A stretch of 64,000 bases of DNA. It comes from Candidatus Micrarchaeota archaeon. Its GTDB lineage: Archaea > Micrarchaeota > Micrarchaeia > Norongarragalinales > SBBD01. The notes under the pieces were generated by a model. The model searched no databases. It was not told where the DNA came from and worked only from the letters and a program-made list of their open reading frames with translations. This document shows, piece by piece, positions 269 through 55,398 of the stretch. The position numbers were made by a program, and so were the translations under genes. Each line of letters begins with the position of its first letter. Position 1 is the first letter of the stretch. The stretch lies in the NCBI GenBank assembly GCA_041305345.1, contig JBFYLP010000002.1:151480-215479 (forward strand), in the 5' to 3' direction.

Positions 269-1195
269 TTGATTCGTGAAAGGGGGATGCGATTGCAAAA
301 AAATTCAGCGTATTTTTACCTTTTCCTGACAATATTGTCCTGGTCGGCGATACCTGCAATCTCCAGGATTGCCCTTGAGGAGGTCGACAATTACCAGCTG
401 CTGCTGTATACGAGCCTGGTAGGAGTGGTTGCGCTTTTTTGCCTCAATGCGTTCCGGGGAAAAATCCGCTTATTGAAGGGATATGGCATTGCAGATTACC
501 TGAAAATGGGCTTGATGGGGGCGCTTGGGATTTTCCTTTACCACATATTCCTCTTCTACGGCTATGGGAATGCTCCGGCAGGCCAGGCGAACGTATTCAA
601 TTACCTTTGGCCGGTGTTCATAGTGATTTTTTCCGTGCCAATCCTGAAGGAAAGGGTGGAGAAGTGGACGGTCGTTGCGGTGGCAATCTGTTTTTTGGGG
701 GCCCTGGTTGCATTCACCGGCGGGCAGGGGTTCGCGGGCGCTTATGCAGCAGGATACGCCTCGGCTGCAATTGCAGCGGTGTGTTATGGCCTGTTTTCGG
801 TCCTGGGGAAAAAAATGAAATACGACAAGGAGGCGAGCATGCTCATTTATTACGTTGCTGCGCTCGCCTTGGCCATTCCTGCAACAATTGCCTTTTCAAG
901 CTTGGTTGTGCCGAAAAATGCATCCACGCTCATCTCAATACTCGTTCTGGGGGGGATGACAAACTCAATTGCGTTCGTATTCTGGTTCAAGGCGCTTGAG
1001 AGGGGCAATACGCATATCGTTGCCAACCTCGCGTACGCGATTCCCCTGCTGGCAATGGTTTGGACGTACTTCCTGAACGCCGAGCAGTTTTCAGCGAACT
1101 CGGTGCTGGGCCTGATGCTGATAATCCTAGGGATAGCTATCCAATCAATTTGGGCAAAAAAAGGGAAGGAGCGGGGAGGGCCTTTGCCAAAATGA
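269..1195 (+). CDS. EamA/DMT-superfamily transporter (10-TM drug/metabolite exporter family)
   Basis: 308 aa, ~10 hydrophobic helices in two repeated halves, gly-rich loops typical of EamA. True start may be the internal Met at ~287. Confidence 0.7.
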   Translation: MIRERGMRLQKNSAYFYLFLTILSWSAIPAISRIALEEVDNYQLLLYTSLVGVVALFCLNAFRGKIRLLKGYGIADYLKMGLMGALGIFLYHIFLFYGYGNAPAGQANVFNYLWPVFIVIFSVPILKERVEKWTVVAVAICFLGALVAFTGGQGFAGAYAAGYASAAIAAVCYGLFSVLGKKMKYDKEASMLIYYVAALALAIPATIAFSSLVVPKNASTLISILVLGGMTNSIAFVFWFKALERGNTHIVANLAYAIPLLAMVWTYFLNAEQFSANSVLGLMLIILGIAIQSIWAKKGKERGGPLPK

Positions 1196-1342: not shown

Positions 1343-2425
1343 ATGGGCAAGCTCAATAAGGAAATATACCTGCAGTTCACACGGCCATTCAACTTGTATT
1401 TGGCCGAGTTCTGGCGCTCGCCCCTGCTCGTTCCAAACGTGAAAAAATTCCTTGGAAAGGGGCTTTCGGACCAGATCTGCTATTCCGATGGGAAGACGCA
1501 ATATTATTACAGGCTTGTCTTGGAGATGCAGCTTTTGAAGAAGCACGTGCTCTCCTTGAACCCGAAGGATGCCGTATTTTCGGAGGAGAACAGCAAAACC
1601 TTCAGGGAACGCGTAGGGCGGATGCGGAAGCTGATGGAGCATAGCTTCGAAGAGGACGAAATCCGGCCAATATATCGGAAAGCGAAAAAAACATTCGAGG
1701 AGCTTTATCCATATTATTATTTCAGCTATTTCATCGGGGGGCCCTGGGCTTTTGAATACAGGGCAAAATGGGGGAAGGATGCAAAGAGGGCGCTCCATCT
1801 TCAGTACGAAAACCGGGTATGCTCCGAGGGGCTGCTAAAGCAGTTCTCGAATTTCATCGAACTGCTTTGCATACACAAATTGGGGGATTTTGCAGCTGAA
1901 ATTGATACGACATCCTTGAGGTTTGGGGAGGTGGAGGATTTGCTCCTGCGGGCAAGGGTTCCTAGCAGGAAGCTCGTCAAGCTTAGGGAAAACGGGTATG
2001 TTTACGCGAAGGGCAGGCTGTACCTGAGCGACGATCTCCTCTCAGTCATTCGCAAACACGGCTACTCTTACGAACCCAAGGAGGCAGGAAAAGTTGAGGA
2101 GTTTGTCGGGGAGGTCGTATGCAAGGCCGGGAAGGCACTAGGGAAGGTGAGGCTCATATTCAAGGAAGATGATCTTGGGGCTTTTAGGAAGGGCGAAATA
2201 TTGGTTGCGCCGATGACTCAGCCCATCTATATGCCCGCAATGAGAAAAGCAGCTGCAATCGTGACGGATGAGGGCGAAATCACCTCCCACGCGGCGATTG
2301 CTTGCAGGGAGCTTAGGAAACCGTGCCTAATTGGCACAAATTCCGCAAGCCTGCTTCTCAAGGATGGCGACCTGCTAGAGGTTGACACCGAAAAGGGGGT
2401 TGCGCGCAAGGTCCACAAGAGATGA
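1343..2425 (+). CDS. PEP-utilizing-enzyme mobile (swivel phospho-His) domain protein with uncharacterized N-terminal domain
   Basis: C-terminus GEILVAPMTQPIYMPAMRKAAAIVTDEGEITSHAAIACRELRKPCLIGT matches the PEP-utilizers swivel domain, including the conserved His in TSHAAI. The N-terminal ~280 aa has no ATP-grasp motifs. Confidence 0.7.
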   Translation: MGKLNKEIYLQFTRPFNLYLAEFWRSPLLVPNVKKFLGKGLSDQICYSDGKTQYYYRLVLEMQLLKKHVLSLNPKDAVFSEENSKTFRERVGRMRKLMEHSFEEDEIRPIYRKAKKTFEELYPYYYFSYFIGGPWAFEYRAKWGKDAKRALHLQYENRVCSEGLLKQFSNFIELLCIHKLGDFAAEIDTTSLRFGEVEDLLLRARVPSRKLVKLRENGYVYAKGRLYLSDDLLSVIRKHGYSYEPKEAGKVEEFVGEVVCKAGKALGKVRLIFKEDDLGAFRKGEILVAPMTQPIYMPAMRKAAAIVTDEGEITSHAAIACRELRKPCLIGTNSASLLLKDGDLLEVDTEKGVARKVHKR

Positions 2426-12620: not shown

Positions 12621-13169
12621 ATGCTTGAAGGAAGGGATTACGCTAAATTGATCAACAAGAATAGGAAGAAGGGGATCCGCCTAAAATTAAAGCGCACCCG
12701 ATGGAAACTCCCATCCTGGAAGCGGACGCTTGCTTACACGGGAGCGGCGCTGCTGCTCCCCTTCTCACTTCGGACCGATTTGCTCGAGCACTTTGCCAAG
12801 CTAAGGGCAACACATCCGTTGGATCCGGGAAAGGGATTCACCATCCAAATCTCGCAGGAGCAGGAAAAAAAGCTGAAGGAAATGGCATCGCAATACGAGA
12901 TTCCGCCCGCAATGGCCGCGTTTGCCCTTTCGATGCATCCTGATTCGGTGAATCAGTTCCTTGCGGAAATAAGGCAAAGGTTTGATACTGCATCAAAGGA
13001 ACATTACTACTACTATGGGAAAGAGAGGATCATTCCGCCCGTGAACACATCAAGGCATCTCGAACGGTTGGCGGAAATGCTCGAGGATATGAAGGGCCCA
13101 AATCGGATCGAGCACGAATTCCTTAGGGGGCAGCTTAAAATCCAACGCAGGCTTGCTGAGCGCAAGTGA
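12621..13169 (+). CDS. hypothetical protein (basic N-terminus)
   Basis: 182-aa ORF with no recognisable motifs. Ends 1 nt before the alaS stop on the other strand. Confidence 0.3.
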   Translation: MLEGRDYAKLINKNRKKGIRLKLKRTRWKLPSWKRTLAYTGAALLLPFSLRTDLLEHFAKLRATHPLDPGKGFTIQISQEQEKKLKEMASQYEIPPAMAAFALSMHPDSVNQFLAEIRQRFDTASKEHYYYYGKERIIPPVNTSRHLERLAEMLEDMKGPNRIEHEFLRGQLKIQRRLAERK

Positions 13170-13170
13170 A

Positions 13171-15831
13171 TCAGAGGATCCTTCCCCTTGCAAAGCTTTT
13201 ATTGCCGCCGCCCGCCGCCTTCTTTTTCTCAAGCAGTTTCTGTGCGTCCTCCCAGCTCTTGTCATTCGTGGCAGCGACTACGAAATTTTCATTGTTGATG
13301 AGCACGACTGCCAGCGAATCTCGTTGCGCGATCTTAAGCGCCAACTTTTCAAGCAGGGGCGGGGAGAGATCGACCTTTGCATCAATCAGCTTCCTGCCCT
13401 CGGTTTTTGCCTCGTTCACCAATTTGTGCGCAAGTGCATCCGCAACATCCTCGTGCGCCTTCTCGATCTGCTTGCCGCGCTCCTTCCATTCCCCGAAGAA
13501 GCGTTTTACCGTGCTTGGAAGCTGGTCTTCTTGAACCCGCAATTCGTCGGATGCCCTCCTTAACAGCTCTTCCCTTTCCTGGATCCATTTAAGCGCCCGC
13601 TCACCCGCCTTATACCGTATCCGTACAACCCCGTCCTGCACCTGCTCGCAGCCAACAATCTTGATGATTCCAACCTGGCCCGATGAGTCGCAATGTAGGC
13701 CGCCGCACGCCTCCACGTCCACGCCCTCGTATTCAACCACCCGAAGGACGTTCCCTATCGCGCCGCCTCCCTGGTAAAGCCTAAAGCCGAACTTCTTCTC
13801 TGCTTCCCCACGATCCATGAATTTGACGATTACCTTCACGTTGTCAAGTACGTGCCTGTTTGCAATCAGCTCGATCCTGCTCAATTCGGCTGCGGAGGGC
13901 TTCTCATAATGCGTAATGTCCAAATGCGCCTCGCCCTCATCCTTCTTCGCGCCTGCCTGCCAGATGTGCTTCCCTAGGACTTCCCTGCAGCTTGCAATCA
14001 TTATATGGGTTGAGGAATGGTGCCTCCTTAGGGACCAGCGCCTCTCCAGGTCAACTTCAACGGAATAAGATTTTTTCTCCTCTAATTTATCTGGAAAATC
14101 AACGGAATGGAGCACCACATCGCCCATTTTCTGCGCATCCTTGACGTTCGCCTCCCCAATTTTGCCGTAATCCGCAACCTGGCCCCCGCCTTCGGGATAG
14201 ATGATCGTGCGGTCCAATGCCACTTTATTGCCGAAAATAGCCAATACTTTTGCCTTGCTCACCAGCTTATTCGCATCCTCATAATATTCCAATTTCGTTT
14301 TTGGCAATTTGGCGAATTTAGGATCGTCAAGGAGGGCCTCCTTTTTGGGCCTTGCCTCCATTATGTGCCCTTCGGTCACCTTCCGGTAATAATCAGCCGG
14401 GATCTGGGCGCTTATCTTCAAATCTGCTGCGACTTTCTCCAGGATTTCCGGGGTTACGCCGTGTGATTCGTACAGAAGCTGGAGCCTGCTAGCATCAAGG
14501 GCGCCTTTGCGCAATATATCCTCAGCCATCTTGCCCGCCTTGACCCGGGTTTCGGCGTACTTTTGCCTCTCGATCTCAAGGATCTTCTGGATTCCGGGCA
14601 GGTTTTCGGAGAGCTCCGGGAATAGGGGCTTGTATGCTGCTGCCTGCAGTTTCATTATGTCGAAAAGACTGAAGGCAAACCCGTACTCTTCCATGAAGCC
14701 AAATGCACGCCGAAGCAATATGCGCAGATTATAGCCGCCTGCAGCGTTCGATGGAAGCGCGCCGTCGGAAAGGGCGAAGAGCACGGACCGGGAATGGTCG
14801 GCAATGGCATATATCGCCTGGAGGGGAGCAATGGTTTTCTCCAGCTCACTTAGGCTTATGCCCAGATTGCTTGCGATTCTTTGCTTCTCATCCCCAAGGG
14901 AATGCACCTCCTCTATGTTCAATTTGGATGCGAGGCGGGAATACTTGGAAAACAGCTCGCCTTCAACCTTAAGCCCGCCCTTCTTCTTCATGAAATCGAT
15001 CTCGTCGGGAAAGACCGAATCGTACGCGGTAGGGGTCTTGTTGTGGAACCAAAGGAGCCGCTCGAAGCCCCAGCCAACGTCGATGACCCGGGTATCCAGC
15101 TCCTCGAATTTTCCGTTTTCCAAGGCACGGAATTGCATGAAGACGCTGTTCACAAGCTCAAGCCCGCCGGAAAAGCTCTCAATGGAAGGCCCAAAAGCGC
15201 TGAAATCGGGCATATGCCAAAGGTCCTCCCCGTAAGTGATGTTGGTTTTTGGGATTTTCAAAACATCGGTCAAAAATTTGTAATTGTAACCGATGCATTC
15301 ATCCTTCCAATAACCGCCAGGTTTGCCCTTTTCCTTGAATGCGTGCTGGCCAGCCATCATGAAGCTGCTAAAGTGCCTTCCGGTCACCCCGACGTTTGCA
15401 ATGTCGACGAACCGCAGGCATATCTGGGGGACCATAAGAGGATTTGCGGGGTATTCGAATGCCACCTTGCCATTCTCGAGGCGCTGGAAATCAACGATGC
15501 TTGCGATCGTGAAATAAAGATCGTCCCTCCACCTGCTTATCACGGGGTACCTTGGCAATATTTCGTGGCCGTTCCTCTTCCAGAAATCGGAGAATTTCTT
15601 CCAGAATTGGGAATAGGTAAGTTGCTCGCCTACCGGGCCGCCCTTCCCGAAGAAATCGTATTCATTATGAGCCGAATCGCCGCAATTGTCGGTTTCGGAT
15701 ATCGACCAGAAAGACTTGCCGCAAAAGGTGCACTTCCTCCTTGCAAAGCCCTCCTTCCGGAAGAGCTCGACCTCGTAGTGCTTCTTGTAATCATTATTGA
15801 ATTCGGCAACAAAATACTTTTTCGACAGCAT
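13171..15831 (-). CDS. alaS: alanyl-tRNA synthetase, archaeal type
   Basis: 886 aa. Class II aaRS core, editing-domain HxxxH (HSSTHIM) and CGGLHC motifs, C-terminal DHHA1-like region. N-terminus MLSKKYFVAEF is typical of archaeal AlaRS. Confidence 0.95.
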   Translation of the reverse strand: MLSKKYFVAEFNNDYKKHYEVELFRKEGFARRKCTFCGKSFWSISETDNCGDSAHNEYDFFGKGGPVGEQLTYSQFWKKFSDFWKRNGHEILPRYPVISRWRDDLYFTIASIVDFQRLENGKVAFEYPANPLMVPQICLRFVDIANVGVTGRHFSSFMMAGQHAFKEKGKPGGYWKDECIGYNYKFLTDVLKIPKTNITYGEDLWHMPDFSAFGPSIESFSGGLELVNSVFMQFRALENGKFEELDTRVIDVGWGFERLLWFHNKTPTAYDSVFPDEIDFMKKKGGLKVEGELFSKYSRLASKLNIEEVHSLGDEKQRIASNLGISLSELEKTIAPLQAIYAIADHSRSVLFALSDGALPSNAAGGYNLRILLRRAFGFMEEYGFAFSLFDIMKLQAAAYKPLFPELSENLPGIQKILEIERQKYAETRVKAGKMAEDILRKGALDASRLQLLYESHGVTPEILEKVAADLKISAQIPADYYRKVTEGHIMEARPKKEALLDDPKFAKLPKTKLEYYEDANKLVSKAKVLAIFGNKVALDRTIIYPEGGGQVADYGKIGEANVKDAQKMGDVVLHSVDFPDKLEEKKSYSVEVDLERRWSLRRHHSSTHIMIASCREVLGKHIWQAGAKKDEGEAHLDITHYEKPSAAELSRIELIANRHVLDNVKVIVKFMDRGEAEKKFGFRLYQGGGAIGNVLRVVEYEGVDVEACGGLHCDSSGQVGIIKIVGCEQVQDGVVRIRYKAGERALKWIQEREELLRRASDELRVQEDQLPSTVKRFFGEWKERGKQIEKAHEDVADALAHKLVNEAKTEGRKLIDAKVDLSPPLLEKLALKIAQRDSLAVVLINNENFVVAATNDKSWEDAQKLLEKKKAAGGGNKSFARGRIL

Positions 15832-49807: not shown

Positions 49808-51334
49808 CTATTTCTTCCTAATCAAGCCCTTAGTTGCATCGACATCAACCAGGTCCCCATCCTTGAGCGCCTTCGTTGCAATTTTTGTGCCGATGACGCA
49901 GGGAATCTTCATCTCCCTGCTTACGATCGCTGCATGGCAGGTGACACCGCCCTCATCCGTGATTATCGCAGCCGCCTTTTTCATCGCAGGCACGATGTTC
50001 GGGTTGGTTGCCATCGAAACCAGGATGTCGCCCTTGTTCATTTTGGGCATATCCCCCGCCTTCCCGATTATTTTCACTATGCCGGAAGCATGGCCCGGGT
50101 ATGCGGGCGTGCCCTTCAATTCCTTCAAATCAGCCGATACCTCCTCAAAAACGACCAGTTTGGAATATTTTTCAGCTTCCGCCCCATCCAAAATCCTAAT
50201 GCCATCATCGAAAGGCAAAATCACATTATGCTTGATGCGTGAATTCAGCAATGGGACATTTGCGCTTCCGTTATTGAGCCATTCCCTCAGCTCAATATTG
50301 CTTGCATGCCTAACCTGCTTGGGAGAAAGCGAAAGCCGGAAGGCAAATTCCCTGAGTAGCCCATCACTATTCCTCGAGCCAATGAAAACCGTATCCTTTC
50401 GCAACCCCTTGAGGTAGGAGAATGAGCGCGCAACAAGCGCCCAGTGGTTGTGCTCTTTAAGGAAATGAAGTTTCTTACCTATTTCCGCCTGCTTATCCTT
50501 GATCTCTGCAGAATGCCGCAACAATACCTCTTTTTTCCGCCTTCCATCCGCTCCCTGCTTCAACTCGCTCCGAAGGAGGTCGCAGAAAAAGCGATCATCG
50601 GCAAGGTCGGGGCCGTCATAATGGAAATTGATCCAGTCGTACTTTCGAACTTGTTCCTCGAGCATTTTGCTTATCATCGGTAGTTTGTTCAATTTTGGGA
50701 TTATCGCATCCAATTCTCCGGAAAATACGCGTTTTGCCTCGGGCGATTTCTGGATTTTTTCGAGGATGCCATAAAAATCCACCTCCTGCTGCTGCATGAA
50801 GGACCTTTCAAGCGGGGTGCCAAGGATGCCAAATGCCTCGCCTGCGGAAATGTCGCAGTCGGATTCCTCGATTTTTTCCTCCAGGAATTTCATTATCCGA
50901 TCCGTAAGCAAAAAATGGCCGAAATCCGAGAGGTTGACGATGTCGCCCCAGGCGTTCATCCATTCCCATTTTTCAATCAGCGAATCGTACAAATCGCATA
51001 ATTGCATATCGGGAATCTTTTTCAAATCCGTTTCCCGCAATTTTTGTGAAAAGTCCCTGACCGCCCTGGCGGAACTTACCTGCCCTTCGTATGTTTTCCT
51101 TAGGAAAGCGGGTTCTTCAAGCATTTTCAGTATCTCTTTCCCAAGCCGATCCCACTTGGCCTCCCCGCCTTCGATTGCCGCGCAAAAATACCAATGCGTA
51201 TCGCGCATGTCGAGGAGGAGGGTGTCGTTGCTGATTCCAAGTATTTCCTTAAGCCGAAGAGCGCCTTTCAGGTAGCATATCCCGTGCACATACGGGGAGC
51301 CGTGGTCCTCTGCGAACTTCTTCCATTTCCTCAT
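49808..51334 (-). CDS. PEP-utilizing-enzyme mobile (swivel phospho-His) domain protein with ~420-aa uncharacterized N-terminal domain
   Basis: C-terminus GDILVSMATNPNIVPAMKKAAAIITDEGGVTCHAAIVSREMKIPCVIGT matches the PEP-utilizers domain, including the conserved His. No ATP-grasp in this protein. Confidence 0.7.
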   Translation of the reverse strand: MRKWKKFAEDHGSPYVHGICYLKGALRLKEILGISNDTLLLDMRDTHWYFCAAIEGGEAKWDRLGKEILKMLEEPAFLRKTYEGQVSSARAVRDFSQKLRETDLKKIPDMQLCDLYDSLIEKWEWMNAWGDIVNLSDFGHFLLTDRIMKFLEEKIEESDCDISAGEAFGILGTPLERSFMQQQEVDFYGILEKIQKSPEAKRVFSGELDAIIPKLNKLPMISKMLEEQVRKYDWINFHYDGPDLADDRFFCDLLRSELKQGADGRRKKEVLLRHSAEIKDKQAEIGKKLHFLKEHNHWALVARSFSYLKGLRKDTVFIGSRNSDGLLREFAFRLSLSPKQVRHASNIELREWLNNGSANVPLLNSRIKHNVILPFDDGIRILDGAEAEKYSKLVVFEEVSADLKELKGTPAYPGHASGIVKIIGKAGDMPKMNKGDILVSMATNPNIVPAMKKAAAIITDEGGVTCHAAIVSREMKIPCVIGTKIATKALKDGDLVDVDATKGLIRKK

Positions 51335-51538
51335 GTGTAAACCTCCCTACAAAGAAACCCATTACGGGCTTATAATTTTATGGAAACATCGGGATTCCAT
51401 CGGATGGCAGGTCCTTGCCAAATATCCCTCCAATCAACAGCAATCCGAAAACCATTTGTAGCAATTCCATTTCAACCCCCCCGTCATAATGATTATGGGG
51501 GAATCCGTATTAACGGATTTAGCCGGCATGTGCCGGTT

Positions 51539-52207
51539 TTAGATGTTCCCGGCAATTTGGCTAAAAACCTGTGAAAATACGCGGGCTTCCGCTTTCCGAA
51601 GGTGCTCCTGCAGGGTTGAGCGCGGAATCTTGAGCTTCCTTGCGAGCTCCTCAACAGAAATCTCCCTCGGGTAGGAGTAATAGCCGTATTTGAAGGCGGA
51701 ATCAATTGCGTGTTTCTGCAGGGCCGTGAGGTTGGTGAAGAGCGCAGGCGTGAAGAAATTCAGGGGCATCTGCTTTAATGAAAGCATCCCGATTTTGGCC
51801 TTCAGCCCGACTTTCCTTATGTTATGGTATAGCCTCGTCAGATGCGCCTTATCCATTGCAGCCAGCGTCCAATACTCCCAGCCGCCTTTTGCATAGATTG
51901 GCTTCAAGAAAAAGACCGTCTTGTCGAGGAGTAGGTGGTGGAATGAATAATTCGAGGGGACGCGGTAAAATATCTGGTCGTTTTCAACTTTTATGATTTG
52001 CATCCGCTCGTCATTCTTGGCAAGCCTTAGCAACTTTTCCTTTTCCTTCCCGTAGACCATGCACACCTTGAACATGTACTCGCGGCCATCCTCCTCGTAG
52101 GAATTGAGGTAATAGATAGAAATCGAGGCGTCGTACAGGCGCGTGAGCTCCAAAAGCGCCGATCCCTGGTGCCACACCTTGAATTCAGCGACCCACATGC
52201 GTTTCAA
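51539..52207 (-). CDS. HTH_10 (bacterio-opsin-activator-type HTH) domain transcriptional regulator
   Basis: C-terminal ISVEELARKLKIPRSTLQEHLRKAEARVFSQV is typical of archaeal HTH_10. Confidence 0.55.
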   Translation of the reverse strand: MKRMWVAEFKVWHQGSALLELTRLYDASISIYYLNSYEEDGREYMFKVCMVYGKEKEKLLRLAKNDERMQIIKVENDQIFYRVPSNYSFHHLLLDKTVFFLKPIYAKGGWEYWTLAAMDKAHLTRLYHNIRKVGLKAKIGMLSLKQMPLNFFTPALFTNLTALQKHAIDSAFKYGYYSYPREISVEELARKLKIPRSTLQEHLRKAEARVFSQVFSQIAGNI

Positions 52208-52337
52208 CCTCCATCGGAAAGGATCATCAAAATGCCTTGTTCATCCAAATAAATTCCGTACAAGCGAAATTAGCTAAACGGGGAAAGGTTCATTGATGGA
52301 ACGCGCGCGATCACAATTTGGAATGGCATTCCCAGTG

Positions 52338-52715
52338 TCATACTCTCCGGAAAAGTTTTACCACTGCCCTGGAAAGAGGCCCGGCATTATTCCGGAGGAG
52401 AGACCGATATTTGGCCCCCTTTTCGGTAAGGCAATATTGATCGACGATTTTTATATCGCCTTTTTGAGCCTTGGCCATTTCCGTAATTCCGGGAATGCCC
52501 AATTTGGAACCGATATGATTGACTTTCCTTGAGAATTCCTTGGATCGCATTGCCTTGAGCGTTTGGGCCCTAGTGGCAACCCTGCTTTTGTTGATGAGCC
52601 CCTTTTCAAGGAGGATATCGAGGGTTTCCCTAGGCGCATCACTCGTTCTCCATGCATCGGTCCGTAGGTTTTCCAACGCAACATATCTTGCCAATTTTTT
52701 TGGTGGAAGGCCCAT
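52338..52715 (-). CDS. hypothetical protein (possible DNA-binding, basic)
   Basis: 125-aa ORF, same strand and tightly spaced with flanking genes. No recognisable motif. Confidence 0.3.
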   Translation of the reverse strand: MGLPPKKLARYVALENLRTDAWRTSDAPRETLDILLEKGLINKSRVATRAQTLKAMRSKEFSRKVNHIGSKLGIPGITEMAKAQKGDIKIVDQYCLTEKGAKYRSLLRNNAGPLSRAVVKLFRRV

Positions 52716-52727
52716 TTTTCATGCACC

Positions 52728-53324
52728 CTACTGCAACCTATAACCGAGTTTTAATAGCTCCTTCTCGCACTGCTCCAGGCTCTGGAAATGCACCGTTTTC
52801 ATCCCGATGGTTGTGGCTCCAGCAAGGTTCTCGGCGGTGTCATCGACCATGACCGCATTTTTGGGGCTAACCCAAACGCGCCTGCAAATCTCGCGGTATG
52901 CCTGGCCGTCGGGTTTCTTCATCCCGATTATGCTTGAGGCGAATTCGAAATCAAACAACGTGGCAAGGCCAAACCGCCTTGAGAAGGGCTCGTGCGCCTC
53001 CCAGTTGTTGTTGGTGAACAGCACAACCTTATTGTTTTTCTTGAGGCGGCTTATCAGGTTGCGCATCCCCCTCCTTTCCTGGATGGTGCCTTTGTAGTAT
53101 TCATCGGCGTCGCCTGCAGTAAACACCCCGACGAAATCGAAAATCACCGCCTTTGGGAAGAAGATGAGTTTGAAATATGGGTAGATGAGCAGAACCAGCA
53201 GATAGGCGATCACAAGCCAAAGCGAGAGGTTGTTCAAATTGCTTATATCAACCCAATCCACAGCAAGGAACAGCACGTAGAGGATGGCCGTGAGCACGGT
53301 TGTCCAATAGTCGCTACGGAACAT
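52728..53324 (-). CDS. HAD-superfamily phosphatase with N-terminal membrane anchor
   Basis: N-terminal 2 TM. HAD motif I AVIFDFVGVFT (DxD-like D-F-V-G), motif III/IV K...VMVDDTAENL. Confidence 0.55.
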   Translation of the reverse strand: MFRSDYWTTVLTAILYVLFLAVDWVDISNLNNLSLWLVIAYLLVLLIYPYFKLIFFPKAVIFDFVGVFTAGDADEYYKGTIQERRGMRNLISRLKKNNKVVLFTNNNWEAHEPFSRRFGLATLFDFEFASSIIGMKKPDGQAYREICRRVWVSPKNAVMVDDTAENLAGATTIGMKTVHFQSLEQCEKELLKLGYRLQ

Positions 53325-53358
53325 GAGTAAAGCTTGAATTTGTGAGAATAAAAAAGTA

Positions 53359-54324
53359 TCAGATTGTCGTTATGGGCCGGCTCTGCACGATGTAGATTTT
53401 GCTGGCTTCAATCGCGAATTCGATGTCCTGCTGCTTGCCGTAATGCTTTTCTATGCCGATGCAGATTTTTGCGAGTGAAAGGATGCTTTTTCCATCCATT
53501 TTTTGCTTTGAGCGCTGGTTTACGGGCACCGGCACAGTTTTCGTTTCGATCTTTGCACCCTTCATCTGCTTGATAATCATCTTTTCCTGCTCATTGACCG
53601 CTATATCCGCGATGGAGAGGTCGGTTTTGTCAATTACGTAGTTGTCCGGGGTGACTGCACCGGAAACAACCGATTCCCCAAGTCCGAAAGCGGCCTCAAT
53701 TACCATTTGATTGCGGTCCTTTGTTACGGGATGCACGGTGAACACGACGCCCGCGACATCGGATTGGACCATTTTCTGCACAACAACAGCAACAGCAACC
53801 CGTTGATTCGAGAGCTTCTTCTCAATTCGGTAGAAAATCGCGCGGGGGGTGAAGAGGGAACTCCAACATAAGCGGATTGTCTCCAGAAGATTTTCCCTGG
53901 AGATGTTCATGTACGATTCTAGCTCTCCGGCCCACGAAGCGCTTGCTGCATCCTCCGCGGTGGCGGAAGAGCGCACTGCCACCAGTTTTGCATTTAGCCG
54001 TTCATATTCGGCAAGAACGGCTTTTTCAATTTCCTTGGAGATTTTCCCCTTTGAGACCAGCGTGCGTATCTGCTTTGAGGCCGCATCAATAGTCTGCGTT
54101 TTCTTGGGGTCGGCCTTCGAGAGGATGGAAGCGATTTTCGCATAAAAACCATTTTGCTTGATGAACGCCTCGAACGAATCCGTGAGGACAACAAAACCAG
54201 GCGGGACGGGAACCCCCGCATTATACATCTCACCAAGCTGCGCCCCTTTCCCTCCGGCAATGGAAACGCAGGATTTGTCCAGCCTCTTAAAAGGCAGCAC
54301 GAATTGCACCATATGGAAGAACAC
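53359..54324 (-). CDS. stand-alone PEP-synthase/PPDK N-terminal ATP-grasp (PPDK_N) domain protein
   Basis: SIAGGKGAQLGEMYNAGVPVPPGFVVLTDSF...VAVRSSATAEDA...QKMVQSDVAGVVFT...KIYIVQSRPITT is the PPDK_N signature. No swivel or TIM-barrel domain. Confidence 0.7.
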   Translation of the reverse strand: MFFHMVQFVLPFKRLDKSCVSIAGGKGAQLGEMYNAGVPVPPGFVVLTDSFEAFIKQNGFYAKIASILSKADPKKTQTIDAASKQIRTLVSKGKISKEIEKAVLAEYERLNAKLVAVRSSATAEDAASASWAGELESYMNISRENLLETIRLCWSSLFTPRAIFYRIEKKLSNQRVAVAVVVQKMVQSDVAGVVFTVHPVTKDRNQMVIEAAFGLGESVVSGAVTPDNYVIDKTDLSIADIAVNEQEKMIIKQMKGAKIETKTVPVPVNQRSKQKMDGKSILSLAKICIGIEKHYGKQQDIEFAIEASKIYIVQSRPITTI

Positions 54325-54420: not shown

Positions 54421-55398
54421 CTATGCTGTTTCCTTTGGCAAATCTCCATCCGGGGAAGGCGGCTCGATTGTCAATTTGCCGTTATTGAAATGGGATTTCA
54501 GCTTGAATTGCCTCTCTATCTCGGCGCAGATTTCCTTCTCCTTCTTCCCTTCCTCAAGCATTTTTTTCGCAAACCGGATGACATTGTTGATGAGGTCGAA
54601 ATTCGAGTAGACGTAATTGCCGGCAGATTGGTTGACGCCGTAATCAATCTCCATCTTCTTCATCGCTTGCTGCTGCTGCTTCAGGGTGTTTTCCAATTTC
54701 TGCGCAGTACCGCTCGTTGTTTGTTCGGATGCCTGCGCTTCTGCGGCAATGACATCCTTTTGCTTCGATATCTCGAAATAATATTCATCGGCCATCTCGG
54801 AAATTGTGGTAAAGGCCTTCTCCTTAGCGTTCTCGAATTTTGAACTTGCAAAAGATGCAAAACCGATAGGGCGGTCGTCAGAATAATAAATTGTGGGCTG
54901 TTTTTTGGGCCTTTCAGGGAGCCTGTTTGGATTCGGAAGGGCAATGTAGGATTCGAGCCGCTTTATTGCCCGTTTGCCCGTCTGCTCCGCCTTGTATGGG
55001 GAAATGATGGTATAATCAGCGGAGGTAAGGATTAGGTTGCCCTTGGCAAACATCTCAAAAATTATGTGATACTCATCCACTTTCTGGAAGGTGAAAACGA
55101 GCAGCCGATCGTCGTTCTCCTGCTTTATTTCGGTGATTTTCGCATTCTCAAGGTGCTTGCGCAGCTGCATCACAAAGGATGAGGGCATTTCCGGGGATTC
55201 CTCGATGTACTTCGAGAGGTGCGCGCGAAGCCCCAGCTCAATGATGAGGTTGTATTCCTTATCGCCGCGGACCTTGAAGCGGAAGAGATTGGGTCGAAGC
55301 TCGAAAATCTTGTTTACGAAACCGCCTACCAACGGCTGGAGCTCCTCGACAAGGAAGGAATAGTCGAGATTGCTCATCTTTTGAACGGCCAGTGGCAT
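54421..55398 (-). CDS. NFACT-N domain protein (RqcH/NEMF/FbpA N-terminal homolog), short form
   Basis: MSNLDYSFLVEELQPLVGGFVNKIFELRPNLFRFKVRG...FVMQLRKHLENAKITEIKQENDDRLLVFTF resembles the NFACT-N consensus. Only 325 aa, so the HhH/NFACT-R/C-terminal parts are absent. Confidence 0.55.
   Translation of the reverse strand: MPLAVQKMSNLDYSFLVEELQPLVGGFVNKIFELRPNLFRFKVRGDKEYNLIIELGLRAHLSKYIEESPEMPSSFVMQLRKHLENAKITEIKQENDDRLLVFTFQKVDEYHIIFEMFAKGNLILTSADYTIISPYKAEQTGKRAIKRLESYIALPNPNRLPERPKKQPTIYYSDDRPIGFASFASSKFENAKEKAFTTISEMADEYYFEISKQKDVIAAEAQASEQTTSGTAQKLENTLKQQQQAMKKMEIDYGVNQSAGNYVYSNFDLINNVIRFAKKMLEEGKKEKEICAEIERQFKLKSHFNNGKLTIEPPSPDGDLPKETA

Follow-up and report, generated by a model that had tools for sequence, protein, structure and literature searches.

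Known two-component dikinases include HpeHI from Rhodococcus, CreHI from Corynebacterium and the phenylphosphate synthase PpsAB from Thauera and Aromatoleum (PMC12167813). In each of them, a separate ATP-grasp subunit of approximately 320-390 aa is encoded next to a partner in which an RPH-like substrate domain is followed by a C-terminal swivel domain carrying the catalytic histidine, and the swivel is proposed to shuttle between the two proteins. Mutation of the catalytic histidine inactivates HpeHI, and HpeH alone is able to move phosphate between substrates (PMC12167813). The same features are found in a locus of Candidatus Micrarchaeota archaeon (assembly GCA_041305345.1), for which a sequence-only reading had proposed that the ATP-grasp, the substrate domain and the phospho-His swivel of such enzymes work together in trans. 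The window, that is the whole stretch of DNA analysed here, comprises 64,000 nt (contig JBFYLP010000002.1, positions 151,480-215,479 of the forward strand). Its analysis supports the core of that proposal, and we consider it likely that the product of the cluster is a small-molecule dikinase split into two components, with several partners, that belongs to the RPH (rifampin phosphotransferase) superfamily.

All the ORFs previously named are present where that reading had placed them. Those lying between 49808 and 54324 share the minus strand, but the second swivel gene (1343..2425) is on the plus strand and falls outside the same-strand arrangement. ORF 53359..54324 (minus strand) encodes, as had been claimed, an ATP-grasp domain alone: Pfam PPDK_N (E 1.1e-99) is aligned over profile positions 2-311 of 328 and no other domain is present. 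Translation probably begins at the ATG at 54312, yielding a protein of 317 aa that matches the orthologue length. Sequence matches in the PDB include the PEP synthase 8A8E from archaea (E 7e-65) and RPH-Lm's ATP-grasp domain, 5HV6 (E 2e-60), and HpeI (9GOJ) is matched with an E-value of 8e-50. The protein retains K22 and R117 of RPH and has Ser in place of T136; the C-terminal QDIE..IVQSRP is also present. The end of the protein coincides with a domain boundary in fused relatives of approximately 830 aa (P0055, P0062, P0065 and P0106), the ATP-grasp of which is 48-51% identical to that of the window, a spacing of about 8 residues separating it from the ensuing module of the 508-aa type. We propose that this protein is the ATP-dependent charger of the swivel histidines.

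Two swivel proteins are encoded in the window, and tblastn revealed no further copies of the cluster domains within these 64 kb. In the 508-aa protein (minus strand), residues 1-404 (50123..51334) are predicted to form a helical substrate-binding domain resembling the rifampin-binding domain of RPH, and residues 405-508 with the stop codon (49808..50122) form the phospho-His swivel domain. Pfam PEP-utilizers matches residues 433-503 (E 6e-25) with the motif GGVTCHAAI, and the codon of the catalytic His467 is located at 49934..49936, within GGVTCHAAIVSRE; T465, C466 and H467 are invariant across 60 homologues. This swivel aligns with that of PEP synthase 8A8E with an E-value of 2.8e-30. The 360-aa protein (1343..2425, plus strand) is a shorter module composed of a reduced RPH-like substrate domain and a swivel (PEP-utilizers, residues 281-352, E 1.5e-21, motif GEITSHAAI), whose His316, encoded at 2288..2290, is invariant among homologues. 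Neither protein has an ATP-grasp of its own, PPDK_N being absent from both.

The N-terminal domains had been called different and uncharacterized. This is only half correct: no Pfam model covers them, but both are predicted to be substrate-binding domains of the RPH type. The AlphaFold2 model of the 360-aa protein (pLDDT 88.7) has RPH-Lm as its top Foldseek match (E 2.8e-10) with the same topology, which predicts a shortened RPH-type domain, and for both modules RPH is the top structural match and the single one that spans the full length. Upstream of approximately residue 337, the substrate domain does not resemble HpeH, PpsA or RPH in sequence, and its assignment as RPH-like rests on predicted structure. 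These folds bear directly on whether the cluster consists of decayed, functionless ppsA fragments or of a split genuine PEP synthase, as could be suspected from an ATP-grasp and a swivel that are both closest in sequence to 8A8E (E 7e-65 and about 3e-30) and from a swivel motif, GGxTCHAAIVSRE, of the PEP-synthase type. The predicted folds are RPH-like, and Pfam and NCBIfam searches of both swivel proteins detected no PEP/pyruvate TIM-barrel domain, which is missing from all the proteins of the cluster. Moreover, the 400-residue N-terminal domain is RPH-like, the substrate domain precedes the swivel in the 508-aa protein, unlike the order in PEP synthase, every ORF is intact, and the identical split is conserved across many DPANN and CPR genomes. 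We regard this explanation as refuted by the fold assignment and the conserved split, and as hardly credible.

The gene-neighbourhood comparison carries the argument further. The order PPDK_N, HAD, HTH_10 and swivel gene(s) recurs in other Micrarchaeota and is shared by L095 and L096; PPDK_N directly adjoins a 508-type orthologue in L001 and L002, overlaps a fused double module in L003 and lies inside arrays in L007, L020, L022, L037 and L067. Co-occurrence of the ATP-grasp with swivel genes is seen in several loci, but an ATP-grasp gene lies within 10 kb in only 20 of 49 long loci. Across 86 related loci, 245 swivel ORFs were counted for 31 ATP-grasp ORFs, and among the 20 long loci with any ATP-grasp, all but one have exactly one (19 of 20). 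Paralogous swivel genes that have diverged deeply stand in tandem, as many as 12 or 13 to an array, and within arrays substrate domains are 22-25% identical whereas swivel domains are 47-61% identical, a pattern that fits different substrates and one shared charger. Natural fusions join an ATP-grasp to a module, a module to a module or a module to a HAD; one protein of 2309 aa carries four modules around one ATP-grasp, the layout of P0211 being three modules, an ATP-grasp and another module, to which L027, L043 and L050 are similar. The suggestion that one kinase module serves several partners is supported by these gene counts and fusions.

In the window, we propose that the second partner of the ATP-grasp is the 360-aa module. 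From end to end, this protein can be aligned to the latter half of P0053 (E 4e-54), a fusion of a 508-type and a 360-type module, and 360-type genes adjoin 508-type genes in L005, L046, L047, L050 and L071. Its gene is located 48 kb from the 508-aa module of the cluster and 51 kb from the ATP-grasp gene; we infer that the ATP-grasp serves this distant protein in the Micrarchaeota genome, although this distance and the frequency of an ATP-grasp among long loci (20/49) mean that another phosphoryl donor may apply. The neighbouring ORF 269..1195 (plus strand) is indeed an EamA/DMT transporter (Pfam EamA, E 2e-36); the accompanying hint of inactivation and export draws on synteny with one close relative (L004), and the transporter is a possible, weakly supported partner of the 360-aa module.

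In an alternative reading, the module substrates are antibiotics or toxins, the arrays acting as a broad resistance battery by the same mechanism. RPH is the closest structure, the paralogues are numerous and deeply diverged, and modules occur near MacB-type ABC exporter clusters and EamA in the window and close relatives. Furthermore, the RPH superfamily is regarded as a proto-resistome (PMC4844700) and resistome surveys of CPR have counted rph-like genes (PMC8651080). By contrast, the scores of the NCBIfam RPH models fall well short of the cut-offs, their alignments reaching no further than the ATP-grasp or the swivel. The rifampin-binding blocks defy alignment altogether, and transporters are neighbours in close relatives only. 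A phosphatase beside the kinase would reverse a resistance modification, and paralogues that are only 22-25% identical are old and bear no sign of recent arms-race duplication. A role in resistance appears unlikely.

The small-molecule dikinase that we favour is accompanied by accessory genes. ORF 52728..53324 (minus strand) encodes a HAD-fold hydrolase (Pfam Hydrolase, E 5e-16, and HAD_2) with, as described earlier, a membrane anchor made of two N-terminal hydrophobic segments (residues ~7-27 and ~33-55). This capless, membrane-anchored protein is a linked component of the system: in 11 of the 86 loci its gene adjoins one for a swivel protein or an ATP-grasp, a reverse search started from the HAD recovered swivel-gene neighbours, P0296 is a natural module-HAD fusion, and the gene belongs to the L095/L096 block. 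The idea of a dedicated phosphatase is therefore upheld as regards linkage, but phosphatase activity is made doubtful by the loss of the Asp that serves as general acid/base: motif I reads FDFVGV, without Asp+2, and this second Asp is never present in the alignment of the linked HAD family. A plain role as product phosphatase is weakened accordingly. The HAD and the regulator are accessory, since the closest relatives (L001 and L002) lack both.

The regulator (51539..52207, minus strand; Pfam HTH_10, E 3e-16, residues 160-211) is encoded directly upstream of the 508-aa swivel gene, and its N-terminal 160 residues may act as a sensor. HTH_10 homologues are found no more than about 1.1 kb from a 508-type gene (5 of 7 being within 360 bp), usually upstream, in five other archaeal loci as well as in L095 and L096. 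An additional ORF of 125 aa (52338..52715, minus strand) that separates the HAD and regulator genes, absent from the sequence-only reading, has no match in Pfam, NCBIfam or PADLOC and gave one weak match (E 3.6e-4), to the small ORF that L001 has in the gap separating PPDK_N from the swivel gene; L095 and L096 have no counterpart, and its membership in the system is uncertain. Against a purely catalytic view of the whole family, the members fused to HTH domains suggest that some paralogues may act in regulation.

These accessory genes also bear on a different function, in which the modules would mainly be ligand sensors in a PTS-like phosphorelay instead of kinases for metabolism or detoxification. 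The ATP-grasp would keep every swivel histidine phosphorylated, each module would lose its phosphate once its ligand is present, DNA-binding domains or regulators would read the resulting state, and the HAD, which has an Asp nucleophile but lacks Asp+2, would accept or drain phosphate from the phospho-histidine in a His-to-Asp manner. Modules fused to XRE or MerR HTH domains (P0156, P0157 and P0175), HTH_10 or TrmB-like regulators adjoining module genes in approximately 11 loci and the module-HAD fusion P0296 are compatible with such a relay, as is the retention at His-2 of the PEP-synthase-type Thr, at which both PEP synthase and PPDK are regulated. Judging from the known chemistry of HADs and P-type ATPases, the consistent lack of Asp+2 in the HAD family would be expected to prolong the life of an aspartyl-phosphate. 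However, 239 of 310 sampled modules have no DNA-binding domain, enzyme-regulator fusions also occur in true enzymes such as BirA and NadR, and a neighbouring regulator is equally expected for substrate-induced catabolic or resistance genes. To our knowledge, no His-to-HAD phosphoryl transfer has been described. We judge such a relay to be quite unlikely.

The dikinase reading leads to the following putative mechanism. The 317-aa ATP-grasp would bind ATP and move its beta-phosphate to the swivel histidine of a separate protein, AMP and Pi leaving, a split charging for which HpeHI, CreHI and PpsAB provide a precedent (PMC12167813). The charged swivel would then swing to its own helical RPH-like domain and phosphorylate a hydroxyl of the bound small molecule. 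The single ATP-grasp would charge at least two modules, the 508-aa protein of the cluster and the 360-aa protein 48 kb away, each with its own specificity. On the cytoplasmic membrane face, the HAD would act on a phosphorylated species, which may be the product, a downstream intermediate or phospho-histidine, and the HTH_10 regulator would set the expression of the neighbouring module gene. A reaction running in reverse, making ATP from AMP and Pi at the expense of host-derived high-energy phosphorylated compounds in the manner of PPDK or archaeal PEP synthase, is very improbable. In its favour, archaeal PEP synthase is used glycolytically, and both the ATP-grasp and the swivel belong to the PEP-synthase type. 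Fermentation under energy limitation, with no respiratory chain, is the way of life of CPR and DPANN organisms (PMC7507113). Against this, the group-transfer potential of ordinary phosphate esters is too low, the substrate domain is RPH-like and all characterised members of that group phosphorylate hydroxyls and spend ATP, and the gene context gives no support.

The locus can also be compared with other known systems. In PEP synthase (PpsA) and PPDK the swivel motif, GGxT[C/S]HAAI, is identical, and archaeal PEP synthase is closest in sequence to the ATP-grasp and swivel; a dikinase reaction that converts ATP to AMP and Pi is presumably common to them all. These enzymes contain a TIM barrel, whereas in the window a helical RPH-like domain precedes the swivel and the genes are split. 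RPH-Lm (PDB 5FBS, 5FBT, 5FBU and 5HV1; PMC4844700), the closest structural match, has the same domain order once the window proteins are concatenated, as in the ~830-aa fused relatives, and the invariant K309 and R312 are plausible counterparts of its R666-E667..K670 block. RPH is nevertheless a single polypeptide, with RIF-binding blocks that are not alignable by sequence and NCBIfam models far below cut-off. The prodiginine-condensing enzymes PigC, RedH and HapC belong to the same superfamily, as does the flavonoid phosphate synthetase YvkC, and NCBIfam PigC and RedH models match the window ATP-grasp (E 1e-69 to 1e-71). They illustrate the breadth of small-molecule acceptors, but are fused proteins of ~830-880 aa with unalignable substrate domains, encoded in biosynthetic gene clusters.

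The two-component split itself is an architecture already described for PpsAB, CreHI and HpeHI (PMC12167813). Unlike these, the window proteins have substrate domains without detectable sequence similarity to theirs, PRK08296-type NCBIfam models aligning only the window swivel (92 bits versus a cut-off of 578), and modules of 508 and 360 aa instead of ~600-650 aa. The residue at His-2 is Thr in the window clade, as in PEP synthase, and Met in HpeH, CreH, PpsA and RPH. One ATP-grasp faces many modules, as many as 12-13 to an array, whereas the described systems are 1:1; the clade is hosted by DPANN archaea and CPR bacteria, and genes of aromatic catabolism are absent from its surroundings; and HADs without Asp+2 and HTH_10 regulators are linked to it. 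What look new are a strongly diverged clade of DPANN and CPR organisms whose swivel motif is of the PEP-synthase type, the many swivel genes per ATP-grasp with their arrays and fusions, the recurrent HAD/HTH_10 order and the HAD without Asp+2. This seemingly undescribed branch, in which one ATP module seems to serve many target-binding partners along with a special HAD hydrolase, is abundant in genomes of ultra-small microbes.

All ORFs named in the sequence-only reading were found where it had placed them, and the cluster at 49808..54324 lies on the minus strand. In transcription order, it is opened by the gene of the ATP-grasp (PPDK_N) protein (53359..54324, minus strand; probable start at 54312), followed after a 34-bp gap by a HAD gene (52728..53324, minus strand), 12 bp further by a 125-aa ORF with no family match (52338..52715, minus strand), after 130 bp by the gene of an HTH_10 regulator (51539..52207, minus strand) and, after 204 bp, by the gene of the 508-aa swivel protein (49808..51334, minus strand). 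The 204-bp gap contains a AAAATTATAA box and a GGGAGG motif. The second swivel protein, of 360 aa, is encoded at 1343..2425 on the plus strand, directly after an EamA transporter gene. A tblastn search detected no further copy of the ATP-grasp or swivel domains anywhere in the 64-kb window. By its best database hits, the source organism belongs with Micrarchaeota-like DPANN archaea. A sigma-70 promoter and terminator scan, a model unsuited to an archaeon, gave no enrichment.

The cluster is bordered upstream by a short NFACT_N/RqcH-like gene (54421..55398, minus strand; 325 aa) and downstream by SUI1 and a ribosomal-protein operon on the opposite strand. Model matches of the NFACT_N/RqcH-like protein are confined to its first 150-160 residues: in the Pfam NFACT_N model (456 positions), residues 16-160 align with positions 8-168, and in the archaeal RqcH model (645 positions), residues 9-156 align with positions 1-154. 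The related loci L001, L002 and L095 have versions just as short (310-347 aa) at this position. The 125-aa ORF shows weak similarity (E 3.6e-4) to a small ORF located between the PPDK_N and swivel genes of L001, and is missing from L095 and L096, which are otherwise collinear with the window. Long ORFs antisense to the swivel coding region recur and cluster together (66 of 87 sources, for example 49863..50417 on the plus strand of the window); these arise as a side effect of conservation on the sense strand and are not genes.

Both swivel proteins end in the PEP-utilizers mobile domain (Pfam, E 6e-25 for the 508-aa and E 1.5e-21 for the 360-aa protein), and a PEP/pyruvate TIM-barrel domain is absent from every protein of the system in the window (Pfam, NCBIfam). 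No Pfam model covers their N-terminal domains, and in searches against the sequences of solved structures only the swivel was aligned, together with about 60 preceding residues in the case of rifampin phosphotransferase (RPH). The 508-aa protein was modelled with AlphaFold2 on 60 homologues (pLDDT 94, pTM 0.91). Foldseek comparison of this model with the PDB returned as top matches the six RPH entries (RPH-Lm; E 1e-14 to 1e-11), whose query-normalised TM-score is 0.54-0.55 in the four best cases and 0.35-0.36 in the two entries of the G527Y mutant; all matches ranked under these six cover the swivel alone. In the model of the 360-aa protein (pLDDT 88.7), the secondary-structure elements follow one another as in the 508-aa protein and the helical bundle is shorter; RPH is again its top Foldseek match (E 2.8e-10). 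Because of these matches, both proteins are predicted to be composed of an RPH-type substrate-binding domain together with a swivel domain, a combination hereafter called a module (508-type or 360-type). The N-terminal domains had been described as different and uncharacterized; they do lack a Pfam model, but both are predicted to be of RPH type with a shared order of elements.

The catalytic histidines of the swivels, H467 (508-aa protein) and H316 (360-aa protein), are invariant. Both swivel motifs carry a Thr two residues before this His (GGVTCH at 49934..49942, minus strand; GEITSH at 2282..2290, plus strand), and T465, which occupies this His-2 position in the 508-aa protein, is invariant among the 60 homologues. 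In PEP synthase and PPDK, regulatory phosphorylation takes place on this His-2 Thr. In the substrate domain, K309 and R312 form an invariant basic pair on the long helix that precedes the swivel linker. When the RIF-contacting sequence blocks and the catalytic block of RPH were looked for, the profile alignment of the 508-type family to RPH (PDB sequences) was seen to start only at profile position 337, about 25-30 residues downstream of the K309/R312 cluster, and the catalytic R666/E667/K670 block of RPH was not mappable by sequence onto the family in this profile search. We infer that K309/R312 sit roughly where RPH has R666-E667..K670.

The ATP-grasp protein (317-321 aa) matches PPDK_N from end to end (Pfam, E 1e-99) and HpeI of the two-component dikinase HpeHI (9GOJ, E 8e-50). 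Residues K22 and R117 of RPH are conserved, T136 is replaced by Ser, and the C-terminal metal/ATP motif is retained, the window protein ending in ...IVQSRPITTI.

Protein fusions and gene neighbourhoods connect these pieces. Four related proteins of about 830 aa (P0055, P0062, P0065 and P0106) consist of an ATP-grasp domain 48-51% identical to that of the window followed by a 508-type module. When P0062 is compared with the window, the 508-aa protein begins about 8 residues past the point matching the end of the ATP-grasp protein, and the split is therefore exactly at a domain boundary. A further protein, P0053 (863 aa), joins a 508-type module and a 360-type module in one chain, in which positions 509-863 align with residues 5-357 of the window 360-aa protein (E 4e-54). 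ATP-grasp and module genes are likewise linked in L001, L002, L003, L007, L095, L096 and many CPR loci. At the same syntenic position, the Micrarchaeota loci L001 and L002 carry NFACT_N, PPDK_N (317 aa) and 508-type genes and lack the HAD and the regulator. The PPDK_N gene is overlapped by a fused double module in L003 (CPR bacterium), and a single PPDK_N gene stands amid five to six module genes in L007 (nanoarchaeal contig). The order is PadR, NFACT_N, PPDK_N, HAD, HTH_10 and then five module genes in L095, and module, PPDK_N, HAD, HTH_10, module in L096; the order that these two loci share with the window therefore marks a conserved block and not a chance insertion.

These data also bear on whether the pieces are remnants of a fragmented or frameshifted ppsA. 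Archaeal PEP synthase is the closest in sequence to both the window ATP-grasp and the swivel, and the swivel motif GGxTCHAAIVSRE is of the PEP-synthase type. The PEP synthase models (TIGR01418, NF005057) yield 126 and 340 bits versus cut-offs of 598 and 740, and a broken ppsA was rejected since there is no TIM-barrel, the predicted fold is RPH-like and the same split is conserved elsewhere.

Apart from the system itself and the antisense artefacts, unbiased clustering of all locus ORFs revealed one family of recurrent neighbours, HAD proteins. This family is present in 11 loci and in the window, in archaea and CPR bacteria alike, almost always 0-500 bp from a module or ATP-grasp gene. In the reverse test, starting from the HAD, 508-type genes adjoin all four closest metagenomic relatives with enough flank (L087-L090), and no 508-type gene was found alongside three distant relatives. 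A module-HAD fusion also exists (P0296). In a word-indexed database the window HAD has three relatives only, the two closest of which (71% and 57% identity) are located in L095 and L096.

All the linked HADs keep the nucleophile Asp, the motif II Ser/Thr (the T/S in LFTNNN / LLSKN), the motif III Lys and the motif IV DD, K137 and D161-D162 being invariant, and the window protein matches Pfam Hydrolase and HAD_2 above the cut-offs. Motif I reads FDxxG[VL]. The general acid/base Asp of this motif (Asp+2) is replaced by V in the window (FDFVGV) and, in each of the 12 linked homologues, by H, A, G, Y, T or S; HADs lacking it were recorded in the window, in L006, L009, L016, L022, L035, L037, L038, L046, L071, L086 and L087-L090, and in P0296. 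The archaeal linked HADs are capless with two N-terminal hydrophobic (transmembrane) helices; those of CPR bacteria have a cap insertion and are soluble, with no membrane anchor. The suggestion of a dedicated phosphatase is thus borne out in its first half by gene linkage (the 11 loci, the reverse test, P0296 and the L095/L096 order), whereas the second half is weakened by the missing Asp+2, because of which efficient action as an ordinary phosphatase is unlikely. The substrate of the protein may be a downstream intermediate or phospho-histidine itself.

Regulators are found near other module genes as well. Homologues of the HTH_10 regulator lie about 1.1 kb or closer to a module gene, usually upstream, in five other archaeal loci as well as in L095 and L096 (within 360 bp in five of the seven), and TrmB-like regulators occur in five loci. 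The hint of small-molecule inactivation and export, drawn from the EamA gene, is weakly supported: its adjacency to the 360-aa gene recurs only in the close relative L004, and EamA was discarded as a conserved partner since the association is not general. Both swivel loci adjoin old paralogous clusters (2522..~6616 and 55461..~60867), in each of which a regulator of the DUF7343/TrmB-like or PadR kind is combined with an ABC ATPase, MacB/FtsX permeases and a CARDB-like surface protein. Between the two clusters, identity is 51% for the ABC ATPases and 25% for the CARDB-like proteins. These MacB-type ABC / CARDB-like / FtsX clusters accompany the system only in the window and its close relatives L001, L002, L004 and L095, and were not retained as partners, their adjacency being treated as synteny. 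A PfkB kinase (8 loci) and a HIT-like protein (5 loci) were also dismissed, being never adjacent and 1.0-7.3 kb away. The gene neighbourhoods contained no pathway pointer for the substrates, and an anti-phage defence system was rejected, none of the six proteins submitted to PADLOC giving a meaningful match.

A family scan with one genome per species yielded 79 loci, nearly all from DPANN archaea and CPR/Patescibacteria by their record titles, with some MAGs labelled otherwise. Titles such as 'uncultured Gammaproteobacteria', 'Methanosarcinales' or 'Rhizobium' occur among L023, L027, L030, L038, L040, L042, L064, L067 and others. Of these, L040 encodes a thermosome and is therefore archaeal; the other labels may be placeholders, and it is not proven that the family is confined to CPR and DPANN. 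Our own HMMs for the substrate domain, swivel, ATP-grasp and HAD were then run on every stop-to-stop ORF of 86 loci. Swivel ORFs numbered 245 versus 31 ATP-grasp ORFs, and at least two modules were present in 51 loci, at least four in 24 and at least eight in six. The most extended arrays are a run of twelve tightly packed module genes in L064 and about thirteen in L013. Among the 49 loci of at least 15 kb, 20 have an ATP-grasp ORF, exactly one in 19 of these 20. Within arrays, substrate domains are 22-25% identical and swivel domains 47-61%, which indicates that the paralogues are ancient and vary chiefly at the place where a ligand would bind.

Modules are also chained within single polypeptides. 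P0203 and P0209 (1500 aa) contain three modules each, P0211 (2309 aa) three modules, one ATP-grasp and one further module, and P0250 the permuted order module, ATP-grasp; multi-module polypeptides like P0211 are encoded at L027 8696..13564, L043 384..4316 and L050 5348..9295. In such giant polypeptides two to four substrate-swivel modules follow one another, and some embed a single ATP-grasp domain. With an E-value limit of 1e-3, the substrate domain alone retrieved 592 cluster representatives, mostly of about 500 aa, from a set of 1.84 billion. Short modules of about 350-360 aa exist in the family, and many arrays hold modules of about 340-390 aa whose N-terminal parts fit neither the 508-type nor the 360-type profile (L015 1634..5827; L071 5964..7019 and 13066..15232; L013 3436..4473; L037 5520..6593; L048 11486..12580) and therefore represent further short-module subfamilies. 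In P0156, P0157 and P0175 (possibly P0112), an XRE-type or MerR-type DNA-binding domain precedes the module; the window has none of these. Their domain composition suggests transcription factors under the control of a ligand or of phosphorylation.

In RPH and in the two-component dikinases HpeHI, CreHI and PpsAB, the ATP-grasp domain moves the beta-phosphate of ATP onto the swivel His with release of AMP and Pi, and the swivel then delivers the phosphate for phosphorylation of a hydroxyl at the substrate domain (PMC12167813, PMC4844700). In HpeHI, the His mutant is inactive, and HpeH alone shifts phosphate between substrates (PMC12167813). Because the ATP-grasp residues are conserved, H467/H316 and K309/R312 are invariant and characterised relatives supply the template, we consider it probable that the window encodes a split dikinase in which the 508-aa module is charged by the single ATP-grasp subunit. 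If the fused and clustered relatives are a guide, the same subunit would also charge the 360-aa module. The core of the earlier proposal, an ATP-grasp acting in trans on substrate-domain and swivel partners, is thus supported by fusions, linkage and predicted folds.

A much bolder reading, which we regard as rather unlikely when taken as a whole, is that of a previously unrecognised 'hub-and-spoke' phosphoryl-distribution system common to DPANN archaea and CPR bacteria. One PEP-synthase-type ATP-grasp would charge up to a dozen anciently diverged phospho-His carriers, each with its own ligand pocket; these modules would trap or sense host-derived small molecules (vitamins, nucleosides, lipid precursors or toxins) and, in genomes of about 1 Mb, stand in for an entire set of conventional kinases. 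The dedicated HAD without Asp+2 would accept phosphoryl groups in a His-to-Asp transfer or serve as a reset device, and the HTH-fused modules as ligand- and phosphorylation-dependent transcription factors.

Annotations of family members from DPANN and CPR genomes read 'phosphoenolpyruvate synthase', 'pyruvate, water dikinase' or 'PEP-utilizing enzyme'. The family members are not PEP synthases, and with such labels a metabolic reconstruction can be misled into assuming a capacity for gluconeogenesis. Arrays of 5-13 modules (about 500 aa each) take up to ~18-20 kb in genomes of around 1 Mb, which implies an important function. If one ATP-grasp charges many modules, the two-component dikinase subfamily would be extended from 1:1 to one-to-many and would offer a natural toolbox of modules differing in specificity. 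The HAD without Asp+2 and the HTH-fused modules further suggest a phospho-His chemistry without characterised precedent. The two-component architecture is already published and the concept is not new; the main interest lies less in the split than in the scale and organisation in ultra-small archaea and bacteria and in the unusual linked HAD. Our literature search found no description of such arrays in CPR or DPANN, which does not prove them unpublished; one resistome survey merely counted rph-like genes (PMC8651080).

Compared with known systems, the window shares with PpsAB, CreHI and HpeHI a separate subunit made of the ATP-grasp domain alone, a partner in which, as in HpeH, CreH and PpsA, an RPH-like substrate domain precedes a C-terminal swivel with the catalytic His, and linkage of the two genes, which in relatives are adjacent or fused (P0055, P0062, P0065, P0106, P0211). 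RPH proper, by contrast, is a single polypeptide (ATP-grasp, RIF-binding domain, swivel), whereas the window proteins are split; its model NF041857 gives 269 bits with the ATP-grasp and 52 bits with the 508-aa protein versus a cut-off of 999. The substrate subunits HpeH, CreH and PpsA are about 45% identical to each other and the window modules fall outside this group at the sequence level, their substrate domain not being alignable by sequence with HpeH, PpsA or RPH. The best PRK08296 model (NCBIfam) reaches 92 bits against the window modules, for a cut-off of 578, with the swivel alone aligned. Placement in NCBIfam PRK08296, PRK06241 or RPH was rejected, as only the ATP-grasp or the swivel aligns and scores are far under the cut-offs. 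The His-2 residue is Met in HpeH, CreH, PpsA and RPH (PMC12167813), the RPH motif being GGLMTH, and Thr in the window family. The family further differs from PpsAB, CreHI and HpeHI by its short modules of ~350-360 aa, its linked HAD family and regulators and, in some members, XRE/MerR domains. Finally, whereas the published two-component pairs are 1:1, the clade of the window combines one ATP-grasp with many modules.
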